DNA of 54,873 nt from Anaerolineae bacterium (GTDB lineage: Bacteria; Chloroflexota; Anaerolineae; B4-G1; DUEL01): assembly GCA_025062415.1 (NCBI GenBank), contig JANXAH010000037.1:1-54873 (forward strand), given 5' to 3'. Every line of letters begins with the position of its first letter. Position 1 is the stretch's first letter. Under the pieces are notes generated by a model. The model was not told where the DNA came from, did no database searches, and worked only from the letters and a program-made list of their open reading frames with translations. The translations under genes and the position numbers were made by a program. Below, one piece after another: positions 7,283 to 54,842 of this stretch.

Positions 7283-7342
7283 ATACAAGGCTCTTCCCGA
7301 TCCTGGGGCTACGCCGGGTTCCCGGGCACCGGACCAGGGAGA

Positions 7343-7488
7343 GGGGGGAGCGGGGGGGTGGGGGGGGGGGGGGGGGGGCCCGCCCCCCCCCCCCCCCCCC
7401 ACCCGCCGGGATGTGAGTAATGGGGAGGAGGGGGGGGGGGTCGGCGGGGGGGGGGGGGTGGGGGGGGGGCGCCGCCCCCCCCCCCCCC
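7343..7488. repeat. Two adjacent G-homopolymer/C-homopolymer palindromic tracts in the ybjN-like/holB intergenic region
   Basis: Tract A: G7-T-G19-CCCG-C18-ACCC (7352-7404). Tract B: GGGGAGGAG-G11...G13-T-G10-CGCCG-C14-AAACCCC (7422-7495). Non-coding low complexity; the overlapping ORFs translate to poly-Gly/Pro. Confidence 0.85.
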
Positions 7489-27849: not shown

Positions 27850-28230
27850 ATGACCCGAATCCTGGTCGCCGAAGACGAACGCGACATCCGGGAATTGATT
27901 GCTTTTACCCTGCGTTTCGCCGGCTTTGACGTGATACTGGCAACCAACGGGGCTGAGGCGGTGGAACTGGCTGAAGCCAATCCACCGGACCTGATCATCC
28001 TGGACGTGCGCATGCCCAAGATGAGTGGCTATGAAGCCTGCCGCCGTCTGAAGGAAAACCCGCGCACGTCCTCTGTGCCTGTGGTTTTTCTCTCCGCAAA
28101 GGGGCAGGATTCGGAAATTCAGCAGGGGCTGGCCTCTGGGGCCGATGAATACATTCTTAAACCATTTGCCCCAGACGAACTCATTCAGCAGGTTCGGGAC
28201 ATCCTGAACCGCGCCGGCCGCAATTCCTAA
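27850..28230 (+). CDS. Single-domain response regulator (CheY-like)
   Basis: Internal ATG 27850: MTRILVAEDERDIRELI...LIILDVRMPKMSGYE...YILKPF. Confidence 0.88.
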   Translation: MTRILVAEDERDIRELIAFTLRFAGFDVILATNGAEAVELAEANPPDLIILDVRMPKMSGYEACRRLKENPRTSSVPVVFLSAKGQDSEIQQGLASGADEYILKPFAPDELIQQVRDILNRAGRNS

Positions 28231-28258
28231 TCCTTAATCCCTACTCCTTACTCCCTAT

Positions 28259-49630: not shown

Positions 49631-50740
49631 ATGTCCATCCGGCGCGCTCTGGCCGTCCTGCGAAAGGAGTTCCGCCACATCTTCCGGGACCTTCGTCTTT
49701 TCTTCCTCGTCACGGTGGCCCCGGCTTTCCTGCTCCTGCTGCTGGCCCACGTCTTTGTCCTGGACGTCCAGGAGGTGGAACTCGCGGTCTGGGATCAGGA
49801 TAATAGTCCCCTTTCCCGCCAGGTCCTGGCCGTGCTGACGTCGGATGGGGAATTCCGGGCCCGCTTCCGGGTTGAGGGATACGACGAACTGGAGCGGTTG
49901 CTGCGGTCGGGACAGGCCGATGGCGGGCTGGTGATCCCTCCTGGCCTGGAGCAGGAGGTGCAGGCCGGACATCCGGCGGAGATTCAGGCCGTTGTGGACG
50001 GCGCCGATCCCATCGCCGCGATTCAGACGACCGCCTCCCTCTCCCTTCGCATCGCCGCTATTTCAGCCCGGTTGAGTGGCCGGAGCCCAGGGAGCGGCGC
50101 TATAGATGTGCGATCTGAAGTCTGGTACAATCCCGCGCTGGATTCCCTGGTCAGTATGGTGCCCGGGTTGATCCCCATCGTTCTCTGTATGCCCGCTCTG
50201 GCCCTCGCTCTGGCGCTGACGCGGGAGAAGGAGACGGGCTCCTTTGAGAGCCTGGCGGTGACGCCGATTCGGGGCATAGAGTATCTGACAGGGAAACTGG
50301 GTGCCTACCTGGCCTGCGGGCTCCTGGGAGTCCTCCCTACCTGGCTGATGGCGACCCTCTACTTCCGTGTTCCCTTCCGGGGCAGTCTGGTCCTGTACCT
50401 TCTCTTTGCCACAGCCTATTTTCTGGCGGAGATGGGCTTCAGCGCCCTCGTCGCCAACTTTGTCCGCAACCAGCAGACGGCGATGCTGCTGGTCCTGACG
50501 CTCTTTTTTGTCCCCAGTTTCTTCGTCGCTGGACTGATTTTGCCGGTAGACACGGGCAACCCTTTCTCCCGGCTGGTAGCCTACAGTTTGCCCACGACGC
50601 ACTTTATCGCTATCAGCCGAGGGGTCTTCCTGAAAGGGCTGGGGCTGACTCCCCTGGCATTCCACATCCTGGTTCTTCTGGCGATGGGGCTGGGCGGGGT
50701 CTCCTTGAGCCTGCTGGTGTTCCGGAAGCGGTTGGGATAG
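49631..50740 (+). CDS. ABC-2 family transporter permease (YbhS/YhhJ-like), no adjacent ATPase
   Basis: N-terminal RKEFRHIFRDLRLFF, a large extracytoplasmic loop, then 5 C-terminal TM segments. Confidence 0.8.
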   Translation: MSIRRALAVLRKEFRHIFRDLRLFFLVTVAPAFLLLLLAHVFVLDVQEVELAVWDQDNSPLSRQVLAVLTSDGEFRARFRVEGYDELERLLRSGQADGGLVIPPGLEQEVQAGHPAEIQAVVDGADPIAAIQTTASLSLRIAAISARLSGRSPGSGAIDVRSEVWYNPALDSLVSMVPGLIPIVLCMPALALALALTREKETGSFESLAVTPIRGIEYLTGKLGAYLACGLLGVLPTWLMATLYFRVPFRGSLVLYLLFATAYFLAEMGFSALVANFVRNQQTAMLLVLTLFFVPSFFVAGLILPVDTGNPFSRLVAYSLPTTHFIAISRGVFLKGLGLTPLAFHILVLLAMGLGGVSLSLLVFRKRLG

Positions 50741-50741
50741 G

Positions 50742-50795
50742 GAGGTTTTGAAGGGCGGTGGCGAAGCCTTCGTCCTTCAAAACCTCTTTTATTTT
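50742..50795 (+). terminator. Intrinsic terminator (GAGG-TTTT-GAAGG...CCTTC-AAAA-CCTC followed by TTTTATTTT)
   Basis: Direct reading: gaggttttgaagggcg...cgtccttcaaaacctc, then a T-run. Confidence 0.8.
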
Positions 50796-50811
50796 AGGGT
50801 CAGGAGCGTGT

Positions 50812-51597
50812 ATGGCCGGGAAGTTCTGCGGTCAGGTCGCTGTGGTCACGGGCGCATCCAGCGGTATCGGGCGGGCCACTGCCCTTGCTCTGGCCCGGGA
50901 AGGGGCTCGGGTCGCCCTCGTCGCTCGCCGGGAGGAACGGCTGCGGGCTGTCGCCGAGGAGGTGGAGACTCTGGGCGGGGAGGCCCTCGTTCTCCCCACC
51001 GACGTCACCCGGCGGGAGGAGGTGGAGCGCGCTGTGGCGGATACTGTCGCTCACTGGGGGCAGGTGGATGTCCTGGTTGCGTCGGCAGGCGCCTATATCC
51101 GTGTCCCCGTTCTTCAGATGACCGTCGCCGATGTGGAACGCTCCATAGCGGTGAATTTCTACGGCGTCCTCTACGCCGTCCTGGCTGTCCTGCCGCACAT
51201 GGCTGCGCGGCGGAGCGGGCATATCGTCCTTGTCTCCTCGGCGGACGGTAAGAAGGGCATTCCGCCCGACGGACCCTACGTGGCGGCGAAGTTCGCCGTG
51301 GCCGGGCTGGGGGACATCCTGCGTCAGGAACTGCGGCCCCTGGGCATCGCGGTCACCACCGTCTTCCCCGGTCGGGTGGACACCCCGATGATCGCCCACC
51401 TGCGGGTGCCGTGGATCTCGGCCAAGATTCCACCGGAGGCTGTGGCGCGCGCCATCCTGCGCGCCCTTCGGCGTCGCACCCCGGAAGTCATCCTCCCCTT
51501 CCAGGTCCGGCTCTTTGTCTACGTCAGCGCACTCTTTCCTTCCCTGGGGGATTGGTTCACCCGGGTGTTTCATCTGGAAGGGTGGGAGGAGAAATGA
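50812..51597 (+). CDS. Short-chain dehydrogenase/reductase (SDR)
   Basis: VAVVTGASSGIGRA, NAG-like SAGAY, and catalytic YVAAKFAV. Confidence 0.9.
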   Translation: MAGKFCGQVAVVTGASSGIGRATALALAREGARVALVARREERLRAVAEEVETLGGEALVLPTDVTRREEVERAVADTVAHWGQVDVLVASAGAYIRVPVLQMTVADVERSIAVNFYGVLYAVLAVLPHMAARRSGHIVLVSSADGKKGIPPDGPYVAAKFAVAGLGDILRQELRPLGIAVTTVFPGRVDTPMIAHLRVPWISAKIPPEAVARAILRALRRRTPEVILPFQVRLFVYVSALFPSLGDWFTRVFHLEGWEEK

Positions 51598-51848
51598 CAG
51601 AATGACAGAATGACAGAATGAGGGAATGACAGAATGAGGGAATGACAGAATGAGGGAATGACAGAATGGCAGAATGACAGAATGAAGGAATGACAGAATG
51701 GCAGAATGACAGAATGAAGGAATGACAGAATGAGGGAATGACGGAATGAGGGAATGACAGAATGGCGGAATGACAGAATGAGGGAATGACAGAATGAGGG
51801 AATGGCAGAATGAGGGAATGGCAGAATGAGGGAGTGGCAGGGTGGAGG
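51593..51848. repeat. Tandem array of about 30-32 copies of an 8-nt unit (AATGACAG / AATGAGGG and variants)
   Basis: Counted unit by unit from 51593. It begins inside the SDR stop codon. Period 8, so it is non-coding in any frame. Confidence 0.95.
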
Positions 51849-51895
51849 AGGTGGGACGGGCTTTTGCCCCGTAGGATTGTGCCCTGTGCCCTGTT

Positions 51896-53395
51896 ATGGA
51901 GGTTCTGATGGCTATGCTGGCTTTGTCTGTGGTGCATCCCTGGCTGCGGCGGGGGATTCGGGTTGCCTTCGTTCCCGGCCTCTCTACGACGGCGCTCCTG
52001 GAGGAGGTGGCTGAAAGACTGCTGGACCGTTTCCGGCGCCGCGGGGACGTGGTCCAGCCGGCCCCCGATGAGCAGACGGACCTGATTCTGACGACCGCCC
52101 CCTTCGGGGAGCCTATCGGATGGCGGGAATCCCTGCTCCTCACGGCCCGGCGGCGTTTCCGCCTCTCCCGGACGCCCACCGTCGTTACTTTGGTTCACGC
52201 GACAAAGCGGGAGTTCTGCCGTCTCCTGAATCATTTCCGCCTGGCCCTTTCCCGCTCCGCGCCGAATCCGGAGGAGTTCTCCTTCCCCGGACTGGCGCCG
52301 GAGGCCTGGCGGGTGCTGGTGGAACAGGGACGGCGCGGCGGGCCGCTCCTGGCACTGGAGCGGATGGTCCAGGCCCAAGCCAAGTGCCTGCGGGTCCTGC
52401 TCTTCGTCGGCGATGACTGTCCGGAGGCCGCCTACGCCTTTGACCTGGTTGGCGCCTACCCCTGCTGCCGGATGGTGGAGCCCGACTCCTTCTACGAAGA
52501 CCTGGTCACACGGATGGTCACCGCCGTCAGCGTGGAGGAGGTCACCCACCATGTACGGCTGGAGCCACCCATCCCGCATGGCCTCTGGAGCGCTCTCTCC
52601 ACTCCTGCAGCGATGATGGAAGCGGCCCGCCAGTTGGGTCGCCGGAATTTCTTCACCGAAATGGTCCGCATCGCCGATCTGGTCCACGTCCCCGCCGTCT
52701 CCGATGCCGTCGCAGAGCAATACAGCGAGGGGTGTTTTGCCACCTGGGACCCGCAACTGGGCGCGCTGGTCGCCACGGTGACGGGGAGCGCGCGCCCGGT
52801 GGACAAACGCCAGATTACCGAGGACGACCTGGCAGTCATCGTCGGTATCCGCCCCGACGGACGGGGGGCCTATTACCGCCCTGTGGAGGGGAAGCGGAAC
52901 GACCCGCCCTCCTCGGAGGCGGTGGAGATGTTCGCGATGGACGAGGGGTTGCCGCGGGTCCGCTGGAAGGCGCCGGACGGAACGGCGGTGGAGGTCCCCG
53001 TGGCTCGGTCCAAGTTGCACGGCCATCGGGGTGTGGCGGCCTACGACCCCCGATATGTGGAGTACGTTCCCGTTGCCCTGCCCTACCAGCACTATCCTGT
53101 CTCCTGCGGGACCAGCGCGCAGGCCCGGTGCATCGTGGAGGCCTTCGGACAGACCCAGTGTCTGCGCGAGCCGGAAGACCCGCGTCCGGTGGCGTTCACC
53201 ATCCTACCCGGACATGGCGTCTTCATCGTGGAGAAATGGGTGCCGGGGAAGGCACCCTTCCAAGTCATCTGGGAGTTCATAGACGCAGGGTACCTGCAGA
53301 TTGACCCCTTCGTCCCCCAGGGACCGTTGCAATACCTTCCCGATCCAACGGGCCGAATGTGGGTTCAGACCGAGGACCCGCTGGGGTGGCTGTAA
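51896..53395 (+). CDS. Hypothetical protein (about 495-499 aa), no recognisable domain
   Basis: Long ORF with neighbour-like codon bias. The ATG at 51908 (5 nt after GGAGG) is a likely alternative start. I can name no motif. Confidence 0.65.
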   Translation: MEVLMAMLALSVVHPWLRRGIRVAFVPGLSTTALLEEVAERLLDRFRRRGDVVQPAPDEQTDLILTTAPFGEPIGWRESLLLTARRRFRLSRTPTVVTLVHATKREFCRLLNHFRLALSRSAPNPEEFSFPGLAPEAWRVLVEQGRRGGPLLALERMVQAQAKCLRVLLFVGDDCPEAAYAFDLVGAYPCCRMVEPDSFYEDLVTRMVTAVSVEEVTHHVRLEPPIPHGLWSALSTPAAMMEAARQLGRRNFFTEMVRIADLVHVPAVSDAVAEQYSEGCFATWDPQLGALVATVTGSARPVDKRQITEDDLAVIVGIRPDGRGAYYRPVEGKRNDPPSSEAVEMFAMDEGLPRVRWKAPDGTAVEVPVARSKLHGHRGVAAYDPRYVEYVPVALPYQHYPVSCGTSAQARCIVEAFGQTQCLREPEDPRPVAFTILPGHGVFIVEKWVPGKAPFQVIWEFIDAGYLQIDPFVPQGPLQYLPDPTGRMWVQTEDPLGWL

Positions 53396-53627: not shown

Positions 53628-54842
53628 ATGACACGAGGCCAGTATAGCGATTGGAGAATGGAAACGCGGGCAGTTCACGCCGGGCGCCTCATTCCAGGGG
53701 ACGACCGCGACCGACGGCCCTTCATCCCGACCGTTCCGCCCATCCATCCCTCCGTCACGTACTACTACGGGCGGATGGAGGACCTGGACGCTGCGTTTGA
53801 TGCCGAGGGCTACGTCTACGCCCGCCACGGGAGCCCCACCGTCGCCGCGCTGGAAGAGGCCGTCGCCGCGCTGGAAGAGGGGGAGACCGCAATGGCCTTC
53901 GCCTCTGGAATGGCCGCCGTCCACGCGGCGCTCCTGGCCGCAGGCGCGCGGGCCGGAACAGCGGTTGTCGCGGCCAGGGACCTCTACGGCGCGACGTATC
54001 TTCTTCTGGACCGTCTGCTGCGGTCCCAAGGGGTGAACGTCCGTTTCGTGGACGTGACCGACCTGGCAGAGGTGGAGGCGGCGTGTGCGGAGGTTTGCCC
54101 CGTTGTCCTGCTGGTGGAGACAGTCTCCAATCCCCTGCTGAAAGTCGCTGACCTCCCTGCGCTGGCGGAAATTGCTCACCGATACGGCGCCGCGTTCCTG
54201 GTGGACAATACCTTCGCCACCCCCTACCTGGTCCGCCCCCTCTCCCTGGGGGCCGATTTCGTCATTCACAGTGGGACCAAGTACCTGGGCGGCCATGGGG
54301 ACGTCCTGGCAGGGGTGGTGGTCACGTCGGCGGCGCGGCGGGAAGCACTGATGGAGGTTCTGAAGACGATGGGGGCCAATCTGGGGCCGATGGAGGCGTG
54401 GCTTCTGCTGCGGGGCCTGCGGACACTGGTTCTTCGGGTGGAGCGGCAGTTTGCCAGCGCACAGGCGGTAGCCCGCTGGCTGGAGGCGCACCCACGCATT
54501 GCGCGGGTCCTTTACCCCGGGCTTCCCTCCCACCCCCAGCACGACCTGGCCCTGCGGCTCTTCGGAGGCCGGGGGTTTGGTGGCATCGTGACCTTTGAGT
54601 TGAAGGACGCAGGGCGAGAGGAGGTTTTCCGGTTTATGGACCGGCTGCGCCTCTGCGTGCCCGCGACCTCCCTGGGCGATGTTCAGACGTTGGTCCTCTA
54701 TCCGGCTCGCTCCTCCCATCGCAGCCTGACGCCGGAAGAGCGGGCCTCGCTGGGCATCACCGAGGGGATGGTGCGGATTTCGGTGGGGATTGAGGCGGTA
54801 GAGGACATCCTGGCGGACCTGGAGGAAGCGCTGAAGGGGTAA
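53628..54842 (+). CDS. PLP-dependent Cys/Met-metabolism enzyme (cystathionine gamma-synthase / gamma-lyase / methionine gamma-lyase family)
   Basis: RAVHAG..., YARHGSPTV, and the PLP lysine in HSGTKYLGGHGDVLAG. C-terminal RISVGIE. Confidence 0.9.
   Translation: MTRGQYSDWRMETRAVHAGRLIPGDDRDRRPFIPTVPPIHPSVTYYYGRMEDLDAAFDAEGYVYARHGSPTVAALEEAVAALEEGETAMAFASGMAAVHAALLAAGARAGTAVVAARDLYGATYLLLDRLLRSQGVNVRFVDVTDLAEVEAACAEVCPVVLLVETVSNPLLKVADLPALAEIAHRYGAAFLVDNTFATPYLVRPLSLGADFVIHSGTKYLGGHGDVLAGVVVTSAARREALMEVLKTMGANLGPMEAWLLLRGLRTLVLRVERQFASAQAVARWLEAHPRIARVLYPGLPSHPQHDLALRLFGGRGFGGIVTFELKDAGREEVFRFMDRLRLCVPATSLGDVQTLVLYPARSSHRSLTPEERASLGITEGMVRISVGIEAVEDILADLEEALKG

Follow-up and report, generated by a model that had tools for sequence, protein, structure and literature searches.

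An octanucleotide tandem repeat of variable copy number between two genes of an uncultured Anaerolineae bacterium

Known intergenic repeats and the octamer array

The short tandemly repeated repetitive (STRR) heptamers of cyanobacteria lie between genes, often inside operons (e.g. hupS-hupL); their function is unknown, and roles in transcript stability or translational coupling have been proposed (PMC2670836). Direct repeats of TAACTGA occur in marine Beggiatoaceae, Cyanobacteria and Bacteroidetes, for the most part shortly before start codons and in forward orientation; they are patchily distributed among close relatives, and binding by CsrA, S1 or Csp proteins has been speculated for them (MacGregor 2015, PMC4679880). 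In Haemophilus and Neisseria, phase-variable simple sequence repeats (SSRs) such as the heptamers upstream of hmw1A indicate that intergenic repeats within a 5' untranslated region can modulate expression (PMC8262952, PMC12721329). Here we describe a tandem array of 8-nt units between a short-chain dehydrogenase/reductase (SDR) gene and a conserved gene encoding a 495-aa protein in an Anaerolineae bacterium. The window, by which we mean the whole stretch of DNA analyzed, is one entire contig of 54.9 kb from a metagenome-assembled genome (MAG) of 2.70 Mb in 264 contigs that is 93% complete (designated G000).

Read directly from the window sequence, positions 51593-51848 consist of 8-nt units joined head-to-tail in perfect register. 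The core of the array (51593-51832) holds 30 clean AATGNNNG octamers; counted in register from 51593, these are 13 copies of AATGACAG, nine of AATGAGGG, four of AATGGCAG, two of AATGAAGG and one each of AATGACGG and AATGGCGG. Directly after them stand the decayed units AGTGGCAG, GGTGGAGG and AGGTGGGA. Tandem Repeats Finder (TRF) reported the array with a period of 16, 15.1 copies, 90% matches and a score of 377, by far the highest of any short-period repeat in the window, and the four-unit pattern (AATGNNNG)x4 matched 27 times in the window compared to none in 100 dinucleotide-preserving shuffles. Purines make up 80% of the array's plus strand; its G+C content is 46%, compared to 62% for the window. 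A previous reading of this DNA, made from the sequence alone, had described about 30 tandem octamers that begin within the stop codon of the SDR gene and decay at their 3' end into GGTGGAGGAGGTGGGA. The octamers are confirmed by TRF, the in-register parse and the shuffle test, the first unit does provide the TGA stop in its bases 3-5 (51595-51597), and the decay can be read from the sequence. Other details of that description needed correction. ATGA, claimed for every unit, is found in 25 of the 30, because five units read ATGG. The unit GAGGGAATGA, said to occur nine times, occurs six times, nine being the number of GAGGG motifs, and the GAGGG that was placed 3 nt before an ATG is separated by 1 nt from the next ATG and by 9 nt from the following one.

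We consider it probable, at roughly 0.75, that this array is a hypermutable octanucleotide SSR (a variable-number tandem repeat, VNTR) that belongs to a genus-restricted, dispersed AATGACRG family filling short intergenic spacers in hot-spring Thermoflexales-like Anaerolineae. The resemblance to STRRs lies in a short head-to-tail unit, in the dispersal of one unit over many intergenic sites within a restricted lineage, and in the coexistence of several unit families per genome, which applies to cyanobacteria and to G000 alike. However, the unit here is 8 nt rather than 7, its sequence is unrelated to the cyanobacterial units, the host belongs to the phylum Chloroflexota, the array is predicted to be unstructured whereas some STRRs form hairpins, and polymorphism of length at the strain level is shown directly. 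Since the unit is an octamer and the heptamers that reside with it are also unrelated to the cyanobacterial ones, the array is STRR-like in its workings without being an STRR by sequence. With the TAACTGA repeats it shares dispersed intergenic arrays, more often than not in forward orientation, of a unit that contains a stop codon, as well as a patchy occurrence in close relatives, but the units differ in sequence and length, and TAACTGA is usually present in 2-6 copies as against up to 30 here. Furthermore, TAACTGA overlaps the position of the ribosome-binding site (RBS) of genes that lack a Shine-Dalgarno sequence (SD), whereas the arrays described here start at the upstream stop codon and leave a canonical GGAGG in place, and CsrA is absent from the genus that bears them. 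Like contingency SSRs, the array is hypermutable by gain or loss of whole units, and repeat numbers differ among close strains; unlike them, it interrupts no promoter or open reading frame (ORF), its host is a free-living thermophile, and one unit recurs at dozens of loci, whether forward or reversed. A full-text literature search found no paper on the AATGACRG octamer or on repeats of Thermoflexus or Thermoflexales.

Copy-number variation at the junction and a dispersed family

Whole units or multi-unit blocks are added to and lost from the array at such a pace that near-identical strains differ in its length. Three NCBI MAG contigs each encode one of the three members of the downstream gene's protein cluster, and two of these contigs (L192, GCA_033581995.1, and L193, GCA_026415475.1) were compared with the window. 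Their flanking genes are 99.6-99.9% identical to those of the window at the nucleotide level, yet the window has 30 units, L192 has 25 and L193 has 20, as counted, like all arrays compared here, in short-read assemblies. Both ends of the array are identical in the three strains and the internal blocks are different, with AAGG units and the block (ACAG-GCAG-ACAG-AAGG)x2 found only in the window. The spacers between stop and start codon measure 310, 270 and 230 nt in the window, L192 and L193, respectively, and all differences are multiples of 8. The presence of unit variants specific to one strain, AAGG being confined to the window, speaks for the differences being real. A metagenome scan found no conspecific contigs. 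The origin by slippage that the sequence-only reading had suggested is thus supported by whole-unit differences among near-identical strains and by a range of 0-30 units among species.

The same junction in other species of the genus carries about 15 pure AATGACRG units (L013), about three (L014), about eight degenerate units (L090) or 11 interrupted units (L194). For the last of these, from a sister species, six Logan assemblies built from separate runs give one and the same sequence, an identity that may reflect the stability expected of interrupted SSRs, provided that the samples are not closely related. L194 also has a different heptamer, CTGCGAC x3 (at ~640-680), where the window has TGTGCCC x2.4, and therefore the spacers are compound mosaics of short repeats. 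No array was found at 12 more distant loci of the same genus (L015, L016, L017-L021 and L093-L097), the L016 contig showing only 15 nt upstream of the gene. In loci without an array, the spacer between the two genes is about 17-30 nt, or the stop and start codons overlap as CGATGAGT or TTTGATGG; ATGA or TGATG overlaps are present at the junction in L093-L097 and L017. The ancestral pair was therefore tightly, and probably translationally, coupled. From this comparison, the array is a later insertion directly after the last conserved codons of the SDR gene (EGWEE). A tree of the downstream protein groups the window, L090 and L014 with support of 95/91, places L013 adjacent to them and keeps the 12 array-less rows together, a topology that fits a sub-clade in which the array arose once at this junction and then expanded, contracted and decayed.

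A search of the genome and its relatives found the same octamer at many further loci, and the array is not unique to this junction. Thirteen further AATGACRG arrays of 4-17 units are present on other contigs of G000, with one more at a contig end, and a congener (G005) has 24. A 24-nt pattern of three units was matched in 7 of the 14 species that make up the genus, as many as 72 times in G005, and was absent from all 27 genomes of other genera in the family and order and from all 400 other Chloroflexota sampled. At least seven G005 arrays are orthologous in position to G000 arrays, with different numbers of units (17 vs. 13, 4 vs. 12, 23 vs. ~4 degenerate, 7 vs. 4, 13 vs. 17 and 6 vs. 8, plus one pair at a contig end), and four G005 arrays have no counterpart in G000. 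By heuristic codon-score gene calls, on which both the intergenic status and the orientation of the arrays rest, all 13 other G000 arrays are intergenic; seven are in sense orientation, several of them supplying the upstream stop codon, and the other six are antisense and border directly on the start of the following gene. A 17-unit antisense array lies directly downstream of mutL (C225:13812-15706), probably by coincidence. In the two species, hundreds of units all keep the AATG core and vary at positions 5-8 alone, although our array finder required AATG, which inflates the apparent invariance. The GAGGG-forming unit AATGAGGG accounts for 9 of 30 units here but for just 1 of 115 in the remaining arrays of G000 and 1 of 211 in those of G005. 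It is a local variant that spread through duplication of a 16-nt block, and no feature of the family.

We also considered other origins for the octamers as a family. A coding repeat on the antisense strand was rejected, as in the sole ORF that spans an array (on C16) both the Pfam domain and a plausible initiating Met come only after the repeat. Nor can the repeats be put down to a loss of mismatch repair, since MutS and MutL are encoded genus-wide, whether or not a species has arrays; in any case, 8-nt loops are poor substrates for MutS. A phage origin was likewise rejected: eight viral contigs contain 3-6 copies of the octamer, but they are unrelated to G000 and mostly of low G+C content. 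Two IMG/VR contigs of 53-60% G+C (L203:2616-2650 and L205:1985-2030) have four to five AATGACAG units exactly between the end of a gene and a GGAGG-ATG, a host-like placement, and show no similarity to G000.

Other short repeats share the genome with the octamer. Dispersed families in G000 include AACAATT (10 loci), AGGGCGC (nine), ACTCCCT (seven) and ACCTGCG (six), and a 20-nt pattern of AATTAAM heptamers occurred in 12 of the 14 genomes that represent the genus, as well as in one neighbouring genus. AATTAAC/AATTAAA heptamers often adjoin octamer arrays (C127:5757, C139:6187, C141:8436, C185, C214:32405 and others), and GT-rich short repeats follow. In one orthologous gap, G005 has an octamer array (L173:1529-1568) and G000 has AATTGAC/AACTGAC/AATTAAC (AATTRAC-type) heptamers (C192:971-1030), which shows a turnover of repeat families at a fixed site.

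Flanking genes and features around the array

The array and its surroundings comprise the following features, all on the plus strand:

50758-51597, plus strand: SDR gene (Pfam adh_short, E 1e-56; NCBIfam SDR family)
51593-51832, plus strand: core array, 30 AATGNNNG octamers with higher-order 16- and 32-nt blocks, (ACAG-AGGG)n and (ACAG-GCAG-ACAG-AAGG)x2
51833-51856, plus strand: decayed 3' end of the array, AGTGGCAG GGTGGAGG AGGTGGGA, the same in the three conspecific strains
51830-51860, plus strand: G-quadruplex-like motif GGG-N7-GGG-N10-GGG-N2-GGG at the decayed end, a sequence pattern matched by regular expression
51856-51872, plus strand: small GC hairpin ACGGGC-TTTT-GCCCCGT with no U-tract, missing in the sister species (L090, L194)
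51878-51894, plus strand: heptamer repeat TGTGCCC x2.4 between the octamer array and the SD, found by TRF
51898-51910, plus strand: RBS and start codon, GGAGG (51898-51902), 5 nt and ATG (51908-51910), aligned by eye with orthologous junctions
51908-53395, plus strand: gene for a conserved 495-aa protein, function unassigned, from public gene calls

The gene call in the conspecific L193 gives an SDR product of 261 aa, implying a start at 50812. The end of the array at 51848 is 60 nt upstream of the likely true start of the downstream gene, ATG 51908, whose GGAGG-N5-ATG aligns with every ortholog. A downstream gene is indeed present as the sequence-only reading had it, but its product was given there as 499 aa and public calls give 495 aa from ATG 51908; in an exact-protein look-up, the 495-aa version had a match and the 499-aa version had none. 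The protein has no Pfam or NCBIfam match and has 2114 homologues at E<=1e-100, mostly from Anaerolineae MAGs, and its gene is the downstream partner of the SDR gene across the genus. A TGA at 51906-51908 overlaps the downstream ATG and is, to judge from the orthologous junctions, a leftover of the ancestral stop/start overlap.

The unit sequence has marked effects on reading frames. The array places 25 TGA codons across all three sense frames and none on the antisense strand. On the sense strand there are 24 mini-ORFs of three codons (ATG-NNN-GAA-TGA), each TGA overlapping the next ATG, and a 32-codon ORF from 51810 stops at the TGA that overlaps ATG 51908. On the minus strand, ORFs of 459 aa (50800-52179) and 511 aa (51557-53092) cross the array; these are long and spurious because (CTGTCATT)n is open in all three frames, and antisense ORFs through the array are a likely source of false gene calls.

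Several further repeats were observed. The window contains a tandem TAATCCT/AATCCCT heptamer in about 4-5 copies (28222-28257) and a perfect 21-bp tandem duplication (CCGTCGCCGCGCTGGAAGAGG x2, 53839-53880), which is in frame and duplicates 7 aa in a gene for a pyridoxal phosphate (PLP) enzyme of Cys/Met metabolism (53628-54842). TRF returned 810 rows at a score of at least 50 for G000, an unusually repeat-rich small genome, among them many large arrays of hairpin-rich units of 20-25 nt and ~125 nt, such as CAGGCCTGGCGGCCTGCGTTA, with examples at C114:4647-5529 and C41:11808-12605. Homopolymer or near-homopolymer runs occur in the window at 86-206 (G33 and C21, near the contig start) and, internally, at 7337-7469 (G36/C26/G48), and C/G-rich repeats stand near the starts (~10-200) of many G000 contigs. 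These runs resemble poly-G artefacts of sequencing that passed into the assembly, and the internal one could mark a mis-join.

Proposed origin, rival explanations and significance

In the reading that we favor, the octamer array would change in steps of 8, 16 and 32 nt by slipped-strand mispairing or unequal recombination. It would be co-transcribed and carried passively in the operon mRNA, as a purine-rich spacer without structure and with no sequence-specific partner, and its ATG, TGA and SD-like features would be by-products of the unit sequence. As the sequence itself shows, the array supplies the stop codon and trims the tail of the SDR protein, and a gap of 230-310 nt stands in place of the ancestral coupling of stop and start, so that the downstream gene would rely on its own GGAGG-N5-ATG.

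Some observations weigh against this reading. Short-read assemblies can mis-size repeats, and the counts of 30, 25 and 20 units are provisional. Arrays have been kept at orthologous sites between species in which the flanks are only 77-90% identical, and there is a bias toward the sense orientation (~26-27 of 37 arrays in G000 and G005, p ~0.01-0.02, from rough gene calls). Such persistence and bias could reflect selection for a function; non-adaptive alternatives are self-renewal by slippage, purine loading of mRNAs in thermophiles and the harmlessness of a stop-rich insert. Nor does this reading account for the spread of one unit to many loci. No inverted repeats or shared flanks, other than further short tandem repeats, were found around the 13 G000 arrays.

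Among the functions that might be proposed, we regard as unlikely a cis-acting rheostat, in which the length of the array tunes the ratio of SDR to the 495-aa protein and variation among strains acts as a soft form of contingency. Translational uncoupling, ribosome loading or stalling on the chain of mini-ORFs, or changes in mRNA stability would be possible routes. The rheostat would make sense of a junction that was coupled in the ancestor and at which the genes now stand apart by a strain-dependent distance, of the 24 ATGA-linked mini-ORFs and the 32-codon ORF that ends at the downstream ATG overlap, and of the sense bias and long persistence at orthologous sites, which leave room for an effect in cis on coupling or mRNA behaviour; like roles have been proposed, without proof, for STRRs (PMC2670836) and TAACTGA repeats (PMC4679880). 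However, those features do not exist in the ~10 of 37 family arrays that are antisense, no preferred array length was seen, the downstream gene retains its own canonical SD, and translation that had to re-initiate 20-30 times in succession would be extremely inefficient. Contingency in the classic sense, a possibility raised in the sequence-only reading, is unlikely because the array is outside any ORF and any recognisable promoter, lying between the stop codon and the SD of the next gene in an apparent operon. A broader and rather improbable idea is that octamer and heptamer arrays are lineage-specific modules of operon junctions, which would be seeded by preference at stop/start junctions through template switching onto existing arrays, be kept in sense orientation as universal stop cassettes and unstructured spacers, and set translational coupling by their hypervariable length. 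If this were true, strains would gain a heritable and reversible means of retuning operon stoichiometry.

Explanations that call for a binding partner or for a foreign origin fare less well. The arrays might serve as a platform, in RNA or DNA, for a lineage-specific nucleic-acid-binding protein, as MacGregor proposed in 2015 for TAACTGA arrays (PMC4679880), and the invariant AATG core, the restriction to one genus and the position at gene boundaries agree with this. Nevertheless, we give it little credence: slippage would be just as likely to yield an invariant core through concerted evolution, the design of the finder inflates the invariance, the arrays occur in both orientations, a period of 8 bp puts successive sites on different faces of the helix, copy number is unconstrained (3-30) and no candidate protein was identified. 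The sequence-only reading also raised the possibility of an RNA that titrates 30S subunits or a GGA-binding protein, and the 256 nt of RNA, which are predicted to be single-stranded and contain nine GAGGG and 16 GGA motifs, do recall the many GGA-containing repeats of the CsrB/RsmZ sponge RNAs. The likeness is superficial, and a sponge or decoy of this kind is very improbable. CsrA (PF02599) was not found in G000, which is 93% complete, or in any of 14 genomes of the genus, while control genomes scored positive. The RNA from 51560 to 51920 folds no better than shuffled sequences (z +0.46) and has no stem-loops that present GGA; no sigma-70-like promoter or terminator-like site was found in or around the array, and an E-value search of 50500-53000 against Rfam returned no match within the array and one chance-level match outside it. 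Moreover, GAGGG units are local, at less than 1% in the other family arrays, about a quarter to a third of the arrays are antisense, and conspecific strains freely lose 5-10 units. Least probable of all is an artefact of assembly or sequencing, or the footprint of a mobile element such as a miniature inverted-repeat transposable element (MITE) or insertion sequence (IS). Probable artefacts do exist in this genome (the poly-G and poly-C near many contig starts) and some contigs break within octamer arrays, but an assembly artefact is contradicted by the array at the same junction in at least seven records assembled independently in different projects and runs, and a mobile element by the lack of terminal inverted repeats or shared flanks around the arrays and by empty sites in relatives, where the array is simply missing or a different short repeat takes its place.

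These results lend no support to a new regulatory RNA. What they document, as a clean case, is a hypervariable octamer VNTR within the operon of an uncultured thermophile. Arrays of this kind break short-read assemblies and can shift the annotation of stop and start codons, and they could be used as markers for typing strains in hot-spring populations. With them, a genus of Thermoflexales-like Anaerolineae joins the lineages that carry STRR-like dispersed short repeats, the function of which has been unknown for decades. At this one junction, the evolutionary series can be followed in full, beginning with overlapping genes and passing through spacers of 3, 8, 11, 15, 20, 25 and 30 units.

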